DNA of 6,104 nt from a virus (lineage: Duplodnaviria; Heunggongvirae; Uroviricota; Caudoviricetes). The notes beneath the pieces were generated by a model that ran no database searches, was not told the DNA's origin, and saw nothing but the letters and a program-made list of their open reading frames with translations. Shown here piece by piece: positions 1 to 6,104 of this stretch. Within the stretch, counting starts at the first letter, position 1. Each line of letters starts with the position of its first letter. The translations under genes and the position numbers were made by a program. Location: positions 1 to 6,104 of the IMG/VR virus record IMGVR_UViG_2579778721_000001; one strand, 5' to 3'.

Positions 1-351
1 TCACCAGAAAATTGATAACAGAGGGCGTTGCAGCGGGGTTGTCACTTAAGCGTATGGTCAACCTGACAACCCGGTGTCCTCAACGGGGGAAGGAATAACC
101 CCGCCATACTTACCGCCGCGCCATTTCGCGGATTGCCACAACCGGAAGCGCACGGTCGACGAAAATTTAACGACAGGCTATCTATGAACCAGCTACCTCG
201 CCGTGCGCTTTCGCGTTATGGTCTGACTTTTCAGGGAAATATCCTTTCAGTAAACTGTCAGTGCCGGATGCTCACCCGTGTCCGGCGCACGCACTCCACC
301 TCACCCGTGGAGAACTCCTTAATTACCAACCTTAGCTTCGTTGGTTATCTA

Positions 352-570
352 TTAACGCGGGTATGTAATCATTCTGGCAATGCTTAATGCCGCTGCTTTT
401 TCCAGCCTGGTGATATCCTGCTCCAGAGCGGACAGATTTTCAGCCTGCTTAGCTCTGGCTTCATTAGCCCATTTCAGATCCTGCGCTGCATTAATTTTCT
501 GGCGCATCCACTCATAAAGTTCATCATCGGTATAGTCTGGCGCGATGATGACGGGTTCTCGTTTCTGCAT
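352..570 (-). CDS. Hypothetical small protein (72 aa), distal gene of the leftward early operon; YdfC-like by size and position only
   Basis: ORF in supplied track. ATG at 570-568 with a GAGGA Shine-Dalgarno (complement of 577-581) about 6 nt upstream. Tandem in-frame stops TAA/TAG. Same strand and tight spacing with the two upstream small ORFs. Confidence 0.6.
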   Translation of the reverse strand: MQKREPVIIAPDYTDDELYEWMRQKINAAQDLKWANEARAKQAENLSALEQDITRLEKAAALSIARMITYPR

Positions 571-599
571 ACTGATTCCTCGCGGTGCTGTTTCGCTTA

Positions 600-710
600 T
601 CAGCCGTTAGATTTTCCCGAACTGGAAAGCGCCTGTTTAAATTCACTGAAGCTGAGAGCTTCTTCGCCTTCGGCAAGACCATCGAAGTATTCTTCGTAAG
701 CCTTTTCCAT
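600..710 (-). CDS. Small protein, 36 aa (MEKAYEEYFDGLAEGEEALSFSEFKQALSSSGKSNG); middle gene of leftward operon
   Basis: Manual translation of the minus strand; absent from the ORF track, presumably below its length cutoff. ATG at 710-708, stop TGA (complement of 600-602). Start lies 19 nt after the stop of the 730..885 ORF and its stop 29 nt before the next ATG. No clear SD, so it rests mainly on operon context and acidic, non-random composition. Confidence 0.4.
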   Translation of the reverse strand: MEKAYEEYFDGLAEGEEALSFSEFKQALSSSGKSNG

Positions 711-729
711 GATTGTGTCGAAATCCATA

Positions 730-885
730 TCACTCACCTGAGTTTCTTTCCAGCCAGCGACGGGCACCATTTTCGGTTTTAAACGTTTTGCTTTTGGTAT
801 ACGTCATCGCGGTGAATGTGCCGTCCTGGTTGGGAAACACGCCGTACACCAGAGATTCGTTGTTGCCAAGCTCGATAGTATCCAT
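730..885 (-). CDS. Small protein, 51 aa (MDTIELGNNESLVYGVFPNQDGTFTAMTYTKSKTFKTENGARRWLERNSGE); first gene after the pL-like promoter; possibly DUF1391 (YdfA/YdaF-type)
   Basis: Manual translation; absent from the ORF track. ATG at 885-883 preceded by GAGG (complement of 891-894) with a 5-nt spacer. Stop TGA (complement of 730-732). Size and position match the first small gene of Rac/Qin-type leftward operons; family assignment is from memory, not a search. Confidence 0.55.
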   Translation of the reverse strand: MDTIELGNNESLVYGVFPNQDGTFTAMTYTKSKTFKTENGARRWLERNSGE

Positions 886-954
886 GCTGACCTCATTTCC
901 CCTTAACGCCGGGTGGCGGAACTAAAACCTACAGCGCCGTGCTGTTCTTGATAG

Positions 955-977
955 AAATATTAGTAACGCGGATATTT
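955..977. promoter_or_regulatory. Putative operator (OL-type) palindrome AAATAT-N11-ATATTT overlapping the pL -10
   Basis: Inverted repeat AAATAT (955-960) / ATATTT (972-977). Contains the 9-mer AAATATTAG that recurs at 1044-1052 and, inverted, at 1671-1679 in the pR region. Confidence 0.4.
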
Positions 978-985
978 TAAGTCAA
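957..985 (-). promoter_or_regulatory. pL-like sigma70 promoter for the leftward operon
   Basis: On the minus strand: -35 TTGACT (complement of 980-985), 17-bp spacer, -10 TAATAT (complement of 957-962). About 65 nt upstream of the ATG at 885. The -10 sits inside the operator-like motif CTAATATTT. Confidence 0.45.
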
Positions 986-1042
986 CAGTATGGCGTATGA
1001 TATTTTTGATTTGGTAACTATGTAAATGTTTTTTCAAGGGAA

Positions 1043-1056
1043 AAATATTAGTTATA
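1043..1056. promoter_or_regulatory. Second copy of the operator-like 9-mer AAATATTAG (possible OL2 or secondary promoter)
   Basis: AAATATTAGT at 1044-1053 matches 955-964 at 10 of 10 positions (11 of 13 over the extended site). No convincing -35 at 17 bp, so more likely a binding site than a promoter. Confidence 0.3.
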
Positions 1057-1082
1057 CAGCTGATTTGCAGAAGTTATGGCAC

Positions 1083-1112
1083 AAAAAAACCGACTAAGAC
1101 GTCGGTTTTTTT
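1083..1112. terminator. Bidirectional Rho-independent terminator between the repressor gene and the leftward operon
   Basis: A-run (1083-1089), stem CCGAC (1090-1094), loop TAAGAC, stem GTCGG (1101-1105), T-run (1106-1112). The hairpin is followed by a U-run on either strand. Sits 27 nt past the repressor stop. Confidence 0.7.
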
Positions 1113-1138
1113 GTTGTGGATGGGGTAGTGAGCGGTGG

Positions 1139-1600
1139 CTACTGGTTACGTTTCTTTAGTGCCAGCATGTTCTCGAAGGCTTCCTCGTAGAGCTTGTTTA
1201 GTCCACGTAGCTGGTTAAGGAGTTTGGCTTTTTCTGACGCAGGTAGAATCTCGAAGAGGTTAAGTAACTCTGCCTGTTCTTCATTGACCAGCCTCCATCC
1301 TTTGCCTGAAAAGTTATCATCATAAGTATCTGATGATCTTACATAATTCATTAAGTCTTTAAGGTCTTCTCGAATGTCCTCTGGTTTTACCTTTAACAGA
1401 GCCGCAAATTTTAGCGCAGCGTCGGTATTTACCGGTATCTTGCCGTTCAGATACTGGCTAACGGTGCCTTGAGATTCGAATCCCAACAACTCAGCCGCCA
1501 GCTCTTGAGTCAGCTTCAGCTCTTTTTTTCTTGCATTCCATGCGGCTTTTAAATTCTTGCTCGCTTCTGGAGTTGCAATCACTTCGCGTGTTTTTTTCAT
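1139..1600 (-). CDS. Prophage repressor, HTH XRE/cI-type N-terminal domain, 153 aa, no S24 peptidase domain (DicA/RacR-type)
   Basis: ORF in track. The HTH segment QELAAELLGFESQGTVSQYLNGKIPVNTDAALKFAALLKV matches the lambda cI helix-turn-helix pattern ([39 protein letters not shown]). Divergent from a Cro-like gene. At 153 aa it is too short for a LexA-like C-terminal domain. No SD upstream of the ATG, consistent with a leaderless mRNA. Confidence 0.85.
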   Translation of the reverse strand: MKKTREVIATPEASKNLKAAWNARKKELKLTQELAAELLGFESQGTVSQYLNGKIPVNTDAALKFAALLKVKPEDIREDLKDLMNYVRSSDTYDDNFSGKGWRLVNEEQAELLNLFEILPASEKAKLLNQLRGLNKLYEEAFENMLALKKRNQ

Positions 1601-1606
1601 ACATAG

Positions 1607-1634
1607 AGTTTATTTGTTTTACCAATATTATCAA
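1607..1634 (-). promoter_or_regulatory. Candidate pRM-like promoter producing a leaderless repressor mRNA
   Basis: On the minus strand: -35 TTGATA (complement of 1629-1634), 16-bp spacer, -10 TAAACT (complement of 1607-1612), ending 6 nt before the ATG at 1600. Weak hexamers, as expected for an activated maintenance promoter. Speculative. Confidence 0.3.
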
Positions 1635-1648
1635 AGATAGTCTGGCTA

Positions 1649-1677
1649 TTGATCTTTAAAATTAGCGGGGCTAATAT
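1649..1677 (+). promoter_or_regulatory. pR-like sigma70 promoter for the rightward early operon
   Basis: -35 TTGATC (1649-1654), 17-bp spacer, -10 TAATAT (1672-1677). About 30 nt upstream of the cro-like ATG at 1708. Overlapped by the palindrome ATTAGC-GGG-GCTAAT (1661-1675). Confidence 0.5.
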
Positions 1678-1679
1678 TT
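1658..1679. promoter_or_regulatory. Putative OR operator palindrome (AAAATTAGCGGGGCTAATATTT)
   Basis: Inverted repeat ATTAGC / GCTAAT around a GGG centre. The right half CTAATATTT is the reverse complement of the AAATATTAG motif in the pL region and overlaps the pR -10. Confidence 0.45.
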
Positions 1680-1707
1680 GCTCGAGGCATAACGTAGAAG
1701 GTTGGCT

Positions 1708-1983
1708 ATGAACTTAAGAGACTATTTAAAAGAGAAACATATCACCCAGCTACAGTTTGGGAAGCTAACGGGTTTATCTCAGGTGCATGTAAGTCGAGTG
1801 CTGGGGGGCTATGAAAGATTCAGCCCTGAAAAAGCATTACGTGTTGCTGAAGTAACGAATTTCGAGGTTACACCTCATGAACTCCGGCCTGATATTTACC
1901 CGAATCCAACCGACGGCTTACCTGTTGGATTCAAGGCTAACACACCAAATGCATCGGAGTTGATTCATGAAAATCAGGCATGA
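1708..1983 (+). CDS. Cro-like early regulator, YdaS-type HTH protein (91 aa from ATG 1708; the track ORF begins at an upstream TTG at 1702)
   Basis: ORF in track. GAAGG SD (1696-1700) 7 nt before ATG 1708. Divergent from the repressor. HTH-like segment LTGLSQVHVSRVL and a C-terminal ELRPD motif typical of YdaS/Cro-type proteins (from memory). Confidence 0.75.
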   Translation: MNLRDYLKEKHITQLQFGKLTGLSQVHVSRVLGGYERFSPEKALRVAEVTNFEVTPHELRPDIYPNPTDGLPVGFKANTPNASELIHENQA

Positions 1984-2392
1984 GCACATCCGCATGGCGA
2001 TGAATGCCTGGGCGCATCCGGACGGTGAAAAAGTTCCGGCAGCTGAAATAACCCGGGCTTATTTTGAGCTTGGTATGACGTTCCCGGAATTATATGACGA
2101 CAGCCATCCGGAAGCCCTGGCTCGCAATACCCAGAAAATTTTCCGCTGGGTGGAGAAAGACACTCCTGATGCGGTTAAAAAAATTCAGGCGTTGTTACCA
2201 GCGATCGAAAAAGCAATGCCGCCTCTGCTGGTGGCCCGAATGCGCAGCCACAGTTCAGCTTATTTTCGGGAGCTGGTGGAGACGCGGGAACGACTGGTGA
2301 GAGACGCTGATGATTTTGTCGCAGTGGCGATCGCTGGTTTCAACCAGATGAATCGTGGTGGCCCTGCAGGAAATATTGTGGCTGTGCATTGA
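1967..2392 (+). CDS. YdaT-type protein (cII functional analogue), 141 aa
   Basis: ORF in track. ATG 1967 overlaps the upstream stop (1981-1983) by 17 nt, with GGAG SD at 1956-1959. N-terminus MKIRHEHI and overall size match my recollection of the YdaT family; not verified by search. Confidence 0.7.
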   Translation: MKIRHEHIRMAMNAWAHPDGEKVPAAEITRAYFELGMTFPELYDDSHPEALARNTQKIFRWVEKDTPDAVKKIQALLPAIEKAMPPLLVARMRSHSSAYFRELVETRERLVRDADDFVAVAIAGFNQMNRGGPAGNIVAVH

Positions 2393-2463
2393 CTCGCAAT
2401 ATTCATACCGGATCACTTCCGGCAATTTGTGAGTAAAAAGATTCGGTATCAGAAGAGGTGAGT

Positions 2464-3504
2464 ATGGCTAACGCCTGGCTCAGATTATGGCATGACATGC
2501 CAAATGACCCTAAGTGGCGAACAATTGCCAGGGTGTCAGGGCAGCCAATTGCAACAGTGATGGCAGTGTATATCCACCTTCTGGTGAGCGCGTCACGAAA
2601 TGTCACGACATGTCACGGCGTGTCACTACGTGGTCACATTGATGTCACGACGGAAGATTTAGCAAGTGCGCTTGATGTGACGGAAGAAGTAATTGATTCA
2701 ATTTTACAGGCAATGCAGGGGCGGGTACTTGATGGAGATTTAATCACCGGATGGGAAAAACGCCAGGTACTGAAAGAGGACAATGGCAACGTTTCACAAA
2801 CCGCGAAATCCCCGGCAGAGCGCAAGAGAGCGCAGCGCGAGAGGGAAAAATTACGAAAACAGAATGAGGGGTGTCACGACGAGTCACGCATATGTCACGA
2901 CATGTCACGACGAGTCACGACAGATAAAGATACAGATAAAGAATTAAACCCCACACATAACGCGCACGTGCGCGAGAGTGCTCCGACCAGTGAGTCGAGT
3001 GGTACGCCGTTGCAGGCAGCAGAACCTGCATCCCTGGATGGACTGAGCGAACCCATCGGGAAATTTCCGATGGTCGATGACTGGCATCCGTCGCCGGATT
3101 TTCGACGACGGGCTGCGTTGTGGGGGATGGCTTTGCCGGAGCCGGAATTTACACCTGCTGAACTTGCCGCTTTCCGGGACTACTGGGCAGCGGAGGGGAA
3201 AGTTTTCACGCAGGTTCAGTGGGAGCAGAAATTCGCCCGTCACGTAAATCACGTCAGGGCGCAGGTTAAGCCAGTCAGCAAGGGGGTAAACCATGCAGCA
3301 GCACCAGGTGGCACCGCATCACGGGCAGTTCAGGAAATTCGGGCAGCACGTGAGCAGTGGGAACGTGAAAACGGATTTATCAGCGACGGAAACGGTCTGG
3401 AAGCTGTGGGAACTCATGGGGGAGGTTTATTCGAACCGCTGGACCCAGAAGAACGGGGCCGCACCTTCGAAGCTCTGGATTGCACAGATTGGCGCGATGA
3501 CTGA
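2464..3504 (+). CDS. Replication initiator (lambda O analogue): N-terminal DNA-binding region plus DnaT-like C-terminal domain; contains the putative origin
   Basis: ORF in track (GTG 2458; ATG 2464 preferred, GAGG SD at 2455-2458). Residues around FPMVDDWHPSPDFRRRAALWGMALPEPEFTPAELAAFRDYWAAEGKVFTQVQWEQKFARH align closely with the E. coli DnaT C-terminal domain ([59 protein letters not shown], from memory). Iteron arrays lie inside the gene, as in lambda O. Confidence 0.8.
   Translation: MANAWLRLWHDMPNDPKWRTIARVSGQPIATVMAVYIHLLVSASRNVTTCHGVSLRGHIDVTTEDLASALDVTEEVIDSILQAMQGRVLDGDLITGWEKRQVLKEDNGNVSQTAKSPAERKRAQREREKLRKQNEGCHDESRICHDMSRRVTTDKDTDKELNPTHNAHVRESAPTSESSGTPLQAAEPASLDGLSEPIGKFPMVDDWHPSPDFRRRAALWGMALPEPEFTPAELAAFRDYWAAEGKVFTQVQWEQKFARHVNHVRAQVKPVSKGVNHAAAPGGTASRAVQEIRAAREQWERENGFISDGNGLEAVGTHGGGLFEPLDPEERGRTFEALDCTDWRDD
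2591..2651. repeat. Iteron array 1: six direct copies of GTCAC(G/N)(A/N)C at 10-11 bp phasing
   Basis: GTCAC starts at 2592, 2602, 2612, 2622, 2633 and 2644. Spacing is not a multiple of 3, so the repeat is at DNA level, not protein level. Confidence 0.7.
2871..2921. repeat. Iteron array 2: five direct copies of GTCACGAC-type repeat at 10-11 bp phasing
   Basis: GTCAC starts at 2873, 2883, 2894, 2904 and 2914. Same orientation as array 1. Immediately followed by an AT-rich tract. Confidence 0.75.
2922..2947. other. AT-rich tract with direct repeat CAGATAAAGA x2 next to iteron array 2 (candidate DNA-unwinding element of the origin)
   Basis: cagataaagatacagataaagaattaaa is far more AT-rich than the surrounding coding sequence and directly abuts the last iteron, mirroring lambda ori architecture (iterons followed by an AT-rich region). 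Confidence 0.5.
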
Positions 3505-3958
3505 GCAGCAAATCCGACAGGTCTGCCGCCAGTGCATGGACCGCTGCCGGGCGGGTGAAACATGGCCTCCGGACCTGGCTGAGTTTGTGGCGCTGATTTC
3601 AGAAAGCGGGGCCAATCCATTTGGCCTGACGGTGGATGCTGTGATGGAGGAGTACCGCCGCTGGCGTGATGAGTCCTGGCGATATGACGGAAGCGACAAA
3701 TATCCGTGGCCTCAGCCTGTGCTGTACCACATCTGCCTCGAAATGCGTACCAGAGGGATTGAGCGCCAGATGACGCAGGGTGAGTTAAAACGACTTGCGG
3801 AACGGCAACTGACGAAATGGGCAAAGCATGTTGGTAACGGGATGAGTGTTCCGCCAGTGCGACGACAACTGGAAGGGGCGAAACACCCGCAAGGGCCAAC
3901 GCCAATTGAACGGCTGAAACAGGAATACGAACGCCGGAAGGCAGCTGGTTTTATTTGA
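3293..3958 (+). CDS. Lambda P-like replication protein (helicase loader), 221 aa
   Basis: ORF in track. Strong SD AGGGGG (3281-3286) 6 nt before ATG 3293. Colinear similarity to lambda P from memory: WIAQIGAMTEQ vs WVLAFRENGITTMEQ, YPWPQPVLYHICLEM vs YPWKSNAHYWLVTNL, ELKRLAERQLTKWAKHVGNG vs EFRRKAADELVHMTARINRG. The alignment register supports the 3293 start over the downstream ATGs. Confidence 0.7.
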   Translation: MQQHQVAPHHGQFRKFGQHVSSGNVKTDLSATETVWKLWELMGEVYSNRWTQKNGAAPSKLWIAQIGAMTEQQIRQVCRQCMDRCRAGETWPPDLAEFVALISESGANPFGLTVDAVMEEYRRWRDESWRYDGSDKYPWPQPVLYHICLEMRTRGIERQMTQGELKRLAERQLTKWAKHVGNGMSVPPVRRQLEGAKHPQGPTPIERLKQEYERRKAAGFI

Positions 3959-3991
3959 ATCTGAGAAACGATTTTGTCGGAGGAAATTTTA

Positions 3992-4762
3992 ATGGAAACC
4001 GTATTTGACGCACTGAAAGCAATGGGAAAAGCCACATCGGTAGAACTGGCCGCGCGACTTGATATCAGTCGTGAAGAGGTTCTCAACGAGCTGTGGGAAC
4101 TCAAAAGAAATGGCGTCGTTGATAAAACTGGTCACACCTGGTTTCTGGCTGGCGAAGGTGAATCCCGGGTAACCGAAGAGCGGCCAGTAAAATCTGAAGC
4201 ACAGGATATGCTGACCGGGGAGGTCGAACAAAAAGTTACCGCAGACATGATGATTGAGTTTATCGGTCAGGATGGTGCTAAAACGTGTGAGGAACTGGCG
4301 GGTAAGTTCGGCGTCAGTACTCGCAAGGTTGCCTCCACGCTGGCGGTGGTAACCGCAACGGGGCGGCTGGCACGCGTTAATCAGAACGGTAAATTTCGTT
4401 ACTGCATGCCGGGCGATAATTTACCAGCAGAGCCGAAAGCCGCGCTGGTAACGGAAAGTGATGGTAAGGCCTTTCCTCAGCCAGCAGGTGCTGCGTTACC
4501 AGTCCGGGAAGCCGCAACACAGGAAGAAATTAAAACAGAAACTGTGGCGGACATTGTGCAGCCGTTGCCATCGTTTACCGAAACGCAAGCAGATGAGCTG
4601 ATTTTTCCGTCCCTTCGCAGGGCAAACCTGGCGCTGCGCAGGGCGAAAAGTGATGTTCAGAAGTGGGAGCGAGTCTGCGCCGCGCTGCGGGAGGTGAACA
4701 AGCACCGGGATATTGTTCGACAGATTACTGATTCTTCCCGCCGTGTTGTATCGGAAAAGTGA
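3992..4762 (+). CDS. Hypothetical protein with two tandem winged-helix-like modules (256 aa from ATG 3992; the track ORF begins at TTG 3974)
   Basis: ORF in track. GGAGG SD (3979-3983) 8 nt before ATG 3992. Two internal HTH-like repeats (residues about 7-50 and 90-135). Confidence 0.7.
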
Positions 4763-4777
4763 TTGCCGGAGGCGCTT

Positions 4778-5170
4778 ATGGCAAAAGTATTTACACCAGA
4801 AGAGCGGGAAGAAGTGAAGGCGCGCATTGTGGAATTCGTGCGCCTGAGCGGACGAGAAACTTTTCGACAACTGGCAGATAAAACGGGTGTCAGTAAGACC
4901 GCTATTCGTCGTTTATCTGGTGCGCTTGCGGCCAGTGGTGATGTCTGGCTCTCTGGTTGCGGGGTATTTCCATCAGAGCAGGCGTATCGCGTATGGCGTA
5001 AGACACCGGAGAAGGCTGCTGACCCGACACTGATTCGAAAGTTACCTGACGGAGAAATACGTCGTTACAACAGACGGCAGAACATAATTTGTCGTGAGTG
5101 CCGCCAGAGCGAAGTTATGCAGCGTGTGCTGGCGTTCTATCGGGGAAACTTTCAGGAGGTGATGGAGTGA
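4778..5170 (+). CDS. Hypothetical winged-helix protein with C-terminal CxxC motif (130 aa from ATG 4778; the track ORF begins at TTG 4763)
   Basis: ORF in track. GGAGG SD (4768-4772) 5 nt before ATG 4778. The wHTH module EFVRLSGRETFRQLADKTGVSKTAIRRLSGALAASG is paralogous to module 2 of the upstream protein ([36 protein letters not shown]). Confidence 0.7.
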   Translation: MAKVFTPEEREEVKARIVEFVRLSGRETFRQLADKTGVSKTAIRRLSGALAASGDVWLSGCGVFPSEQAYRVWRKTPEKAADPTLIRKLPDGEIRRYNRRQNIICRECRQSEVMQRVLAFYRGNFQEVME

Positions 5171-5463
5171 GGGTCAGAGTTTATATTGCCGGTCCAATGA
5201 CGGGATATGAAAATTTCAACCGTGAGGCGTTTCACAAGGCGGAAGAGGAACTGAAACGGGAAGGGCATACCGTCTTAAACCCGGCAGTACTTCCGGACGG
5301 GCTGACACAGCCGCACTACATGGATATTTGCATGGCAATGATTCGTTGTGTGGATGCGATTTACATGCTGAATGGCTGGCAGCGGTCAGCGGGCGCTAAG
5401 GCAGAGCTGGCACTGGCGGAGAAACTGGGGCATGCAGTGATTTATCAGGAGGTGGCTCAATGA
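5167..5463 (+). CDS. DUF4406-like protein (nucleoside 2-deoxyribosyltransferase-like fold), 98 aa from GTG 5167
   Basis: Track ORF 5098..5463. Preferred start is GTG 5167, overlapping the upstream stop as GTGA, with GGAGG SD (5155-5159) 7 nt upstream. The N-terminal V-Y-I-A-G-P-M-T-G motif is typical of DUF4406 proteins (from memory). Confidence 0.65.
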   Translation: MRVRVYIAGPMTGYENFNREAFHKAEEELKREGHTVLNPAVLPDGLTQPHYMDICMAMIRCVDAIYMLNGWQRSAGAKAELALAEKLGHAVIYQEVAQ

Positions 5464-5921
5464 GAGAGGTTAACTATGAGGCGCTTCGTGAGGCAGCACA
5501 AAACTATCAGTCGACGCTGGCGTGGTATCAGGCTATCCCGGACAGCCCAAATGCTGAACGGGATTGTGATGCGGCTCTTGCTGCGTTTAAGCGTCACATC
5601 CGTCATCGGGAAGCGGATATTATCGCTGATTTGCTGGATGGACTGGAAGAAGCAAAATCACAACTCAACGAGCAGCGTGAGTATTACGAAGGCGTTATCT
5701 CTGATGGGAGCAAGCGTATTGCTGAACTGGAAGCGCGGGAAGTTCAATTACCGACTCGCTACGACCTTCGATATGGACACCCGATAAATGCAGATGAGCG
5801 ACATGTCATGATACCTAAAGAAAATGGCAGTTGGCTTTACCTGATTGACTTAGAACACGCATTACGCGTCGCTGGCATTCGCATCAAAGGAGAGGAGCAT
5901 GGAAATAAAACCAGAGGATGA
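5460..5921 (+). CDS. Hypothetical protein, 153 aa; N-terminus weakly reminiscent of Ead/Ea22-like phage proteins
   Basis: ORF in track. ATG 5460 overlaps the upstream stop as ATGA. AGGAGG SD (5447-5452) 7 nt upstream. The ALREAA N-terminal motif resemblance is from memory and low confidence. Confidence 0.6.
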   Translation: MREVNYEALREAAQNYQSTLAWYQAIPDSPNAERDCDAALAAFKRHIRHREADIIADLLDGLEEAKSQLNEQREYYEGVISDGSKRIAELEAREVQLPTRYDLRYGHPINADERHVMIPKENGSWLYLIDLEHALRVAGIRIKGEEHGNKTRG

Positions 5922-6104
5922 GTTAAGCAATATCGTTTTATTTCCGGTAAAAGAGGATGACCCTCGTAATCAGGTTAATTTTCTTTATGAGCCATCGGAA
6001 AGACCATATTGTCATCACGCCTCTGTTCGGGTTGACGAAAAAGAGCGTCAGGTCCGCTGTAAAATCTGCGGTGCAGTTGTGGAGCCGTTTGACTGGATGC
6101 TCTC
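5899..6104 (+). CDS. Hypothetical protein with Cys/His zinc-ribbon-like motif, 5' partial (runs off the window end)
   Basis: Manual translation from ATG 5899: MEIKPEDELSNIVLFPVKEDDPRNQVNFLYEPSERPYCHHASVRVDEKERQVRCKICGAVVEPFDWML..., open to the window end. SD AAGGAGAGGAG (5888-5898). Overlaps the upstream gene by 23 nt. Not in the track because no stop lies within the window. Confidence 0.5.
   Translation, partial: MEIKPEDELSNIVLFPVKEDDPRNQVNFLYEPSERPYCHHASVRVDEKERQVRCKICGAVVEPFDWML

Follow-up and report, generated by a model that had tools for sequence, protein, structure and literature searches.

The left end of the analyzed window (the whole stretch of phage DNA under study, 6,104 nt) carries a tract of about 350 nt in which an initial annotation noted hairpins, a direct repeat and no convincing gene, and the question is what kind of element this tract represents. 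Its non-coding character was borne out by stop codons, which occur in all three minus-strand frames as had been stated (longest open stretch: 57 codons), by the lack of a Pfam match for the ORFs 133..387(+), 74..187(+) and 58..153(-) and by indels of non-triplet length in the homologues (the module B region measures 95-98 nt and the H2 loop varies in length; Table 1). The plus-strand ORF 133..387 was thus rightly regarded as non-genic, and no ORF was kept in frame in the homologues or matched a protein family. A 10-codon ORF (GUG at 304) behind AAGGAG at 316-321 was also considered as the source of a small protein, along with the listed ORFs of 31-84 aa. This strong Shine-Dalgarno-like AAGGAG is conserved, and two loop variants share the position at which the short frame stops (UGA or UAA). 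However, the GUG start is replaced with GUC, GUU or GUA in several variants, one type contains an in-frame UAG, and the larger ORFs have no Pfam match and are broken by non-triplet indels in homologues; we regard a small protein as most improbable.

The repeats themselves were found as described. The inverted repeat 36-44/64-72 is 9 nt long and 100% complementary, those at 84-88/99-103 and 116-120/127-131 can be read directly from the sequence, and the one at 325-330/340-345 extends to 322-330/340-348 at 89%. The 10-nt direct repeat CTCACCCGTG at 271-280 and 300-309 is exact, and a repeat of this kind within 40 nt was obtained in 0.6% of 1000 dinucleotide shuffles. The longest perfect stem, AAGCGCACGG/CCGTGCGCTT within 143-155/201-213, was absent from the earlier list; a perfect stem of at least 10 bp was formed in 1% of 1000 dinucleotide shuffles. 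The description of the tract as hairpin-rich held only in part. There are 10 perfect stems of at least 5 bp versus a shuffle mean of 6.1, but 13% of shuffles reach this count, so that it is not significant on its own. The fold of the whole tract had a z-score of -1.77, with 5 of 100 shuffles folding as well.

Judging by sequence comparison, the tract forms the untranslated spacer, 341 nt long, that separates ydfC from dicF in the dicBF (pL-type) operon of a Qin-type lambdoid prophage. This identification is based on its position between ydfC and dicF, the gene order of K-12, the match to the K-12 Qin gap plus dicF (98% identity over the full length) and the Rfam DicF match at window position 9/10. 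The order in K-12 is dicA, ydfA, ydfB, ydfC, a 340-nt gap, dicF and dicB; here, the tract is flanked by ydfC and dicF, both on its own strand, and ydfA-ydfB and the repressor gene precede it. Since only the first 9-10 nt of DicF are inside the window, a DicF match is impossible within the window alone, and the remaining 43 nt are located past its left edge. In locus L001, whose sequence is identical to that of the window up to about 800, the Rfam model of DicF (RF00039) matched positions 2958-3009(-), that is, window -42..9, with 76.7 bits and an E-value of 8e-17 (gathering score: 48 bits). No family matched the tract itself in the Rfam scan that had been suggested (whole window and tract 1-360, E up to 10; only sn3071 noise, 13.6 bits, E 6.9).

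In the identical CFT073 sequence, dicF and then dicB and ydfD continue on the same strand to the left of the window. The earlier placement of the tract downstream of the leftward operon was therefore wrong, and its description as the 3' part of the leftward early transcript is correct as regards leftward, pL-type transcription but not as regards the 3' end of the operon. The comparison with the Qin ydfC-dicF interval that had been proposed proved apt, as the tract is that interval. The K-12 Qin spacer and the window copy share the locus, gene order, hairpins, DicF start and length (340-341 nt), but the window copy belongs to a prophage with a different immunity and replication region. Window 1-600 was matched in 4339 of 5426 complete E. 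coli genomes, at a median of two places per genome.

Table 1. Features of the ydfC-dicF spacer and adjoining genes (window coordinates; x joins the two strands of a helix).
Feature	Position	Strand	Basis
DicF sRNA, first 10 nt (UUUCUGGUGA)	1..10	-	Rfam and alignment with K-12 dicF annotation
A/U-rich single-stranded linker (GCCCUCUGUUAUCAAU)	11..26	-	putative RNase E cut between 11 and 10
Module C, pseudoknotted domain of ~120 nt, most of the 190-nt precursor body	23..145	-	model R1
P0, closing stem of module C (GUUGUGG/CUGCAAC)	136-142 x 27-33	-	proposed here
H1	127-131 x 116-120	-	module C helix
Pseudoknot, GUAUGG (H1-H2 linker) x CCAUAC (H3 loop)	104-109 x 52-57	-	proposed here
H2	99-103 x 84-88	-	module C helix
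H3	64-72 x 36-44	-	module C helix
Module B, long interrupted hairpin of ~21 bp	137..220; arms 198-220, 137-159; apex 160-197	-	RNAalifold and inverted repeat
Module A, mosaic 5' part of the spacer	222..351	-	folding, repeats, 44 variants, nested coverage
Module A hairpin	340-345 x 325-330	-	inverted repeat
Module A hairpin (CUCCAC/GUGGAG)	307-312 x 294-299	-	fold
Module A hairpin (GCCGGA/UCCGGC)	281-286 x 263-268	-	fold
Module A hairpin (CUGAC/GUCAG)	257-261 x 223-227	-	fold
ydfC, last protein gene upstream of the spacer	352..570; stop codon 352-354	-	ORF list and RefSeq CFT073
ydfB	between ydfA and ydfC	-	RefSeq name in the same identical genomes
ydfA	730-885	-	RefSeq name in genomes identical over window 1-600, e.g. 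CFT073
Repressor gene	1139-1600	-	ORF list

Some features around the tract should be noted. The window coincides with CFT073 to about position 800, and ~800-6104 is unrelated to L001 and contains another repressor/cro/replication module. Its 153-aa repressor resembles the 154-aa repressor adjoining the Salmonella DicF locus L005 (4701-5165). Past the end of the repressor gene, positions 1084-1111 form a perfect hairpin, AAAAAACCGAC-UAAGAC-GUCGGUUUUUU, which is flanked by A and U runs on both sides and resembles a bidirectional terminator; the weak Rfam matches in 997-1119 (STnc370, IS128, AgrB) are all due to this hairpin. The dicF-dicB interval contains an STnc100-like stretch (L001 2806-2946 (-); 38.8 bits, under the gathering score of 47), which sits 55-195 nt past the left edge of the window and has a long stem, UUUUGUGAUGCGGUG...CACCGCAUCACAAAA.

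The processing of DicF has been described for K-12. DicF is made there from a polycistronic transcript starting upstream of ydfA, an internal promoter was not found in the spacer, and the terminated 1146-nt ydfABC-dicF RNA is the main species (PMC10448788). Species of 190 nt and 53 nt were reported in Northern blots with DicF probes; the former disappears when RNase III is missing and builds up on RNase E inactivation, and the 53-nt DicF needs RNase E (PMC10448788). On DicF processing, Ragunathan et al. 2023 confirms Faubladier et al. 1990 (PMC10448788).

By analogy with K-12, the window copy would be transcribed leftward from a repressor-controlled promoter upstream of ydfA into one RNA with ydfABC, dicF and dicB, and the sequence scan gave no minus-strand promoter within the tract. 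RNase III would then create the 5' end of the 190-nt precursor and RNase E that of the 53-nt DicF; for the window copy both steps are presumed from K-12, and what was seen here is the substrate structure and the site sequences. The linker/DicF border reads CAA followed by UUUU, which we take to fit the preference of RNase E. The proposed RNase E cut follows from the K-12 dicF annotation and the published RNase E dependence of the 53-nt species (PMC10448788). For RNase III, we infer a cut at about window 147/148, between GCGC and UUCC in the 3' arm of module B, because the 5' end of the precursor should lie 190-53 = 137 nt upstream of DicF; this position is derived from the gel size of the 190-nt species and not from a mapped coordinate. 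A cut in the 3' arm agrees with the sequence of the published figure, whose first bases belong to the apex of module B (PMC10448788). The early suggestion of a processed RNA is thus right, given that RNase III/RNase E processing has been published for the 98%-identical K-12 copy. Taken as one explanation, the identity of the spacer, its role in the DicF precursor and these published and inferred steps are very probably correct.

Comparison of phage records revealed that the spacer is a nested mosaic of three modules (A, B and C). Module B, the long hairpin that the initial annotation overlooked, is the putative home of the RNase III cut mapped in K-12. RNAalifold analysis of 20 variants gave a consensus stem of 21 pairs, conserved at its base and hypervariable at an apex of about 39 nt, and among the E. 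coli variants no pair was changed on both sides. In cdtI-type phages and the Salmonella prophage, the position of module B is filled by long stems of other sequence. The base of the module B stem (CAUAAC/GUUGUG) and the closing stem P0 of module C use the same GUUGUG (137-142). RNase III cleavage would free GUUGUG(G) from the base of module B, and it could then pair with CUGCAAC and close module C. A 17-nt direct repeat with 82% identity was also observed at 114-130/199-215 (CGCCGCGCCATTTCGCG / CGCCGTGCGCTTTCGCG), linking H1 with the 5' arm of module B. The variants L021, L069 and L344 read CAUAACGCGAAAUGGCGC at this repeat, which is the product expected if its two copies had recombined and most of module B, with the 5' strand of P0, had been lost.

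Module A contains the direct repeat. In the RNA (CACGGGUGAG), most of each copy (300-309 and 271-280) is loop sequence, belonging to the second and third module A hairpins of Table 1, respectively, and the first three bases of each copy (CAC) are in or beside the stem. The copies were considered as paired binding sites and this candidate was rejected, as the repeat-bearing loops vary (GGGUCAG, GGGUUAG, GGAUAAGAA); in variant L014, the intervening segment is missing. The lack of conservation of the direct repeat as such argues against the protein-binding sites proposed earlier. The hairpin 325-330/340-345, the fourth of those annotated at first, is imperfect in K-12 and straddles a mosaic joint. 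A 575-bp insertion (L246 1832-2406) was observed at window 331/332, in the loop of this hairpin; it carries two small opposite-strand genes, and its carriers are the closest full-length relatives (ABU 83972 and others, 99.8%). The spacer is a mosaic joint accepting moron-like inserts. No specific function was detected for module A, which we read as a mosaic structured spacer.

A cluster of terminators or attenuators, as suggested earlier, was not found either. The tract contains no minus-strand terminator-like site, and no U run follows the listed hairpins: H1, H2 and H3 are followed by CGGUAAG, UUGAGG and CUGCAAC, respectively. Nor are these three hairpins independent units, since they are helices of one pseudoknotted domain, module C. 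Rather than a series of loosely strung hairpins, most of the body of the 190-nt precursor is a pseudoknotted domain with covariation. The folding and covariation analysis across homologues proposed at the outset gave a divided result: compensatory changes were found in the module C helices and the H1-H3 domain is conserved, whereas the direct repeat and the fourth hairpin are not.

In order to describe this domain, copies of module C were collected from IMG/VR, metagenomes, P1-like plasmids and phage records, and the covariance model R1 scored 148 bits in the window. In alignment A5, which contains 80 distinct phage and prophage copies, standard pairs occupy 94% of the pair cells and in 18 of the 32 pairs both partners have changed. 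For A5, the covariation score was 0.173 versus 0.096 for shuffles (reached by 0 of 500), and slid partners gave at most 0.10. A MAFFT alignment of 31 diverse copies gave the same picture: 92% of the cells were paired, and both partners had changed in 8 pairs. Note that the harvest patterns fixed most pseudoknot bases and that alignments A3 and A5 were fitted to the model; the invariance of the pseudoknot bases is thus partly due to the patterns used in sequence collection.

The individual helices contribute differently to this result. H2 is hypervariable yet paired (CGGGG/CCCCG, CUGGG/CCCAG, CCAGGUG/CACCUGG, UGGUG/CACCA, CCGGU/ACCGG). H3 changes from GUUGUCA/UGACAAC to GUUGCCA/UGGCAAC and reads AUCACCA/UGGUGAU in L307, and P0 covaries in the lambdoid copies. 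H1 is almost invariant and therefore provides no evidence for or against itself. Two pairs of the pseudoknot covary across the collected copies: U-A is replaced with C-G in P1-type copies and, independently, in the Qin/DicF background (L313/L358), and G-C is replaced with A-U in L218/L230; a few single uncompensated changes are also present. Single-sequence minimum free energy folding of the 190-nt RNA did not recover the full domain, and the folds of the 190-nt and 222-nt RNAs were ambiguous.

The H2 loop (89-98) varies in length and sequence in A5 and is nearly always pyrimidine-rich with UCCU or CUCC (anti-Shine-Dalgarno-like). In many types, but not in all, it could pair with GAGGA/AAGGA in the next linker. 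A second pseudoknot between the H2 loop UCCUU and the J2 GAGGA is possible in several types but was rejected, as it fails in P1-type and GAAAAUGC-type copies.

These data bear on a simpler possibility, in which the tract is a passive, structured, G-rich spacer that keeps Rho off and owes its conservation to recent common ancestry. Most copies are indeed 90-100% identical, the RNA strand contains 103 G versus 83 C (unfavourable for Rho loading), the energy of the whole-tract fold is only marginally unusual, and module A is a mosaic with varying loops and a repeat that is not conserved. However, without selection for the fold one would not expect divergent lineages to show compensatory changes in H2, H3, P0 and the pseudoknot; module B corresponds to an RNase III site mapped experimentally in K-12, and module C moves as a unit between unrelated phage backbones. 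A passive role is plausible mainly for module A; as an account of the whole tract, we consider it improbable.

Module C was found in three settings, namely the Qin-type operon, the pL leader of cdtI/Stx2c-type phages, and P1 with P1-like plasmids. In the cdtI/Stx2c-type phages, no N-like ORF is located between the repressor and module C. In P1, the module starts about 35 nt downstream of the C1-controlled Pban start, and part of the P1/P1-like copy is annotated as a 'dicF-like region'. Directly downstream of module C, at least 8 different payloads consisting of a seed and an intrinsic terminator were found. Of 13 loci scanned, which cover most payload types, the Rfam DicF threshold was reached only by L133 and Salmonella L005. 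As only two payloads reach the Rfam DicF score, several payloads are probably unannotated DicF-family sRNAs with different seeds. DicF-type sRNAs also exist without module C: it is absent from Salmonella L005 and from phiSTEC1589 (L153), both of which keep a long stem and a DicF-type payload. Module C is thus not required for making such an sRNA.

A number of these loci deserve separate mention. Payloads in the DicF position, directly after module C or the long stem, were observed in L012, L014, L045, L053, L061 and L108, as well as in L133, L142, L152, L153, L285 and L296. In L152 (1590-1760; record of the Actinobacillus phage vB_Apl-pPE4), the payload is tandemly duplicated (CCCCGCCACAACAACCCAUGUUGAUUACCUUUUGGCGGGUAUCC... 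twice); the region is closely similar to E. coli prophage sequence, and the stated host may deserve a check. The isrK and C4 antisense RNAs (Rfam, above the gathering score) are adjacent to each other in L133 (5046-5234), L108 (1171-1359) and L012 (40-228). Their distance from the DicF-like payload is a few hundred nt on the downstream side in L133 and L108, whereas in L012 (phage cdtI) the pair is encoded on the other strand, over 2 kb upstream and past the cI/cro region.

The 'dicF-like region' of P1 (NC_005856) allows a direct comparison with the window. It contains the same domain, with H1-H3 and the pseudoknot bearing compensatory changes, and a terminator hairpin comes after it. Unlike the window, the P1 region lacks a long RNase III stem and a clear P0; its payload did not qualify as DicF in Rfam, and the copy, instead of being internal to an operon, begins ~35 nt after the transcription start.

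A more far-reaching interpretation, to which we give somewhat less than even odds, takes window 23-145(-) as a copy of an undescribed conserved pseudoknotted domain of lambdoid and P1-like temperate phages of enterobacteria that is a discrete functional unit, be it a portable pro-sRNA cassette, an excised RNA or an antiterminator. In that case, the classic 190-nt DicF precursor would consist of module C plus DicF. The literature searched contained no experiment that shows the role of module C. We hypothesise that it may act as a self-contained scaffold or insulator that is portable between sRNAs. With such a scaffold, the sRNA seed and the A/U-rich RNase E site would stay unpaired irrespective of the upstream sequence; in addition, a structured by-product of roughly 137 nt, consisting of module C and perhaps functional, would be set free by the RNase E cut.

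Other sRNAs derived from 3'UTRs or operons offer a parallel. For example, flanking stem-loops direct RNase E processing of MicL, as reported by Updegrove et al. 2019 (cited in PMC9438474). Like DicF, MicL-type sRNAs have a 3' end formed by a terminator and are cut out of a longer mRNA by RNase E at an A/U-rich site adjoining a stable structure. DicF differs from them in that the RNase III step comes first and in that its upstream domain is a ~120-nt pseudoknotted multi-helix structure rather than simple stem-loops. In addition, module C is common to sRNAs with different seeds, unlike the flanking stem-loops of the MicL type.

The by-product itself could be the functional molecule. Module C would then be an independent structured non-coding RNA that acts alone, for example through binding to a protein of host or phage, and is excised by a 5' cut of RNase III and a 3' cut of RNase E or at a second RNase III stem; the DicF-like sRNAs would merely be neighbours in a processing array. 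This agrees with the strong conservation of the structure, in which the J1 and H3-loop sequences are invariant while H2 varies, and with the occurrence of the module both in lambdoid phages and in P1-like plasmid prophages. A long stem built on CACAAC/GUUGUG also comes after the sRNA payload of cdtI-type phages; two such stems, both candidates for RNase III, thus enclose the sRNA, and the region resembles an array of excisable units. In L307, module C lies between two long stems and no terminator payload is present within 260 nt, an arrangement that fits an independent RNA better than a scaffold. This divergent copy (L307 1254-1900 (-)) has many compensatory changes and is preceded by an apparent 3' part of a tRNA (GGGUUCAAGUCCCGG). 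However, nearly all copies are fused directly to a seed-plus-terminator payload, there is no match to a known family or ligand, and a stable upstream fragment was not found, the published Northern blots having carried DicF probes (PMC10448788). Action as an independent RNA is thus possible but rather unlikely.

Module C could also be a cis-acting RNA antiterminator like HK022 put or the Bacillus EAR element, in which case the modified polymerase would partly read past the DicF-type terminator into dicB/kil/exo or, in P1, ban. The module is always located upstream of the first intrinsic terminator of the early operon, whether ~35 nt after the Pban start in P1 or in the pL leader of cdtI/Stx2c-type phages without an N-like ORF, and phiSTEC1589, the sole examined phage with an N gene, lacks it. 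The EAR element is pseudoknotted, and so is module C. HK022 put has about 70 nt, two stem-loops and a triplex (PMC9378689); like module C, it is a structured leader RNA of the early operons of N-less phages upstream of the first terminator. On the other hand, module C differs from it in shape (~120 nt, three hairpins, a closing stem and a pseudoknot), no likeness to putL/putR was found in sequence or structure, and the best hit of R1 against the whole HK022 genome with filters off scored 8.1 bits (E 1.3). The correlation with N is based on a single case, and Salmonella L005 has neither module C nor, by its ORF list, a recognisable N gene. In K-12, moreover, the terminated 1146-nt RNA dominates, so the terminator works (PMC10448788). 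We therefore consider antitermination quite unlikely.

Two related ideas were rejected. A link between the absence of N and module C has one case for it (L153) and one contrary (Salmonella L005), which are too few and phylogenetically confounded. A riboswitch-like antiterminator pairing of the 3' side of the domain with the payload terminators showed no consistent complementarity by eye. Among the rivals, an independent excised RNA ranks above a put/EAR-like antiterminator and the latter above a passive spacer.

DicF, which influences cell division and metabolism and, in EHEC, also virulence, is among the oldest known bacterial regulatory RNAs. That this locus is the DicF precursor region was known before; it has reportedly been studied since 1990 (by Faubladier et al.), and finding the tract is in itself a re-identification of that region. 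The published work on K-12 Qin maps cleavage sites, and the accessible papers contain no pseudoknotted precursor fold or spread among phages. The fold, spread and role of module C appear to be undescribed in the literature searched, although an older drawing may exist. If module C does control processing, stability or read-through, it would explain how phages time the release of a toxic sRNA as well as the expression of the downstream division inhibitors, and the module would be a useful marker for phage sRNAs missed by current models.
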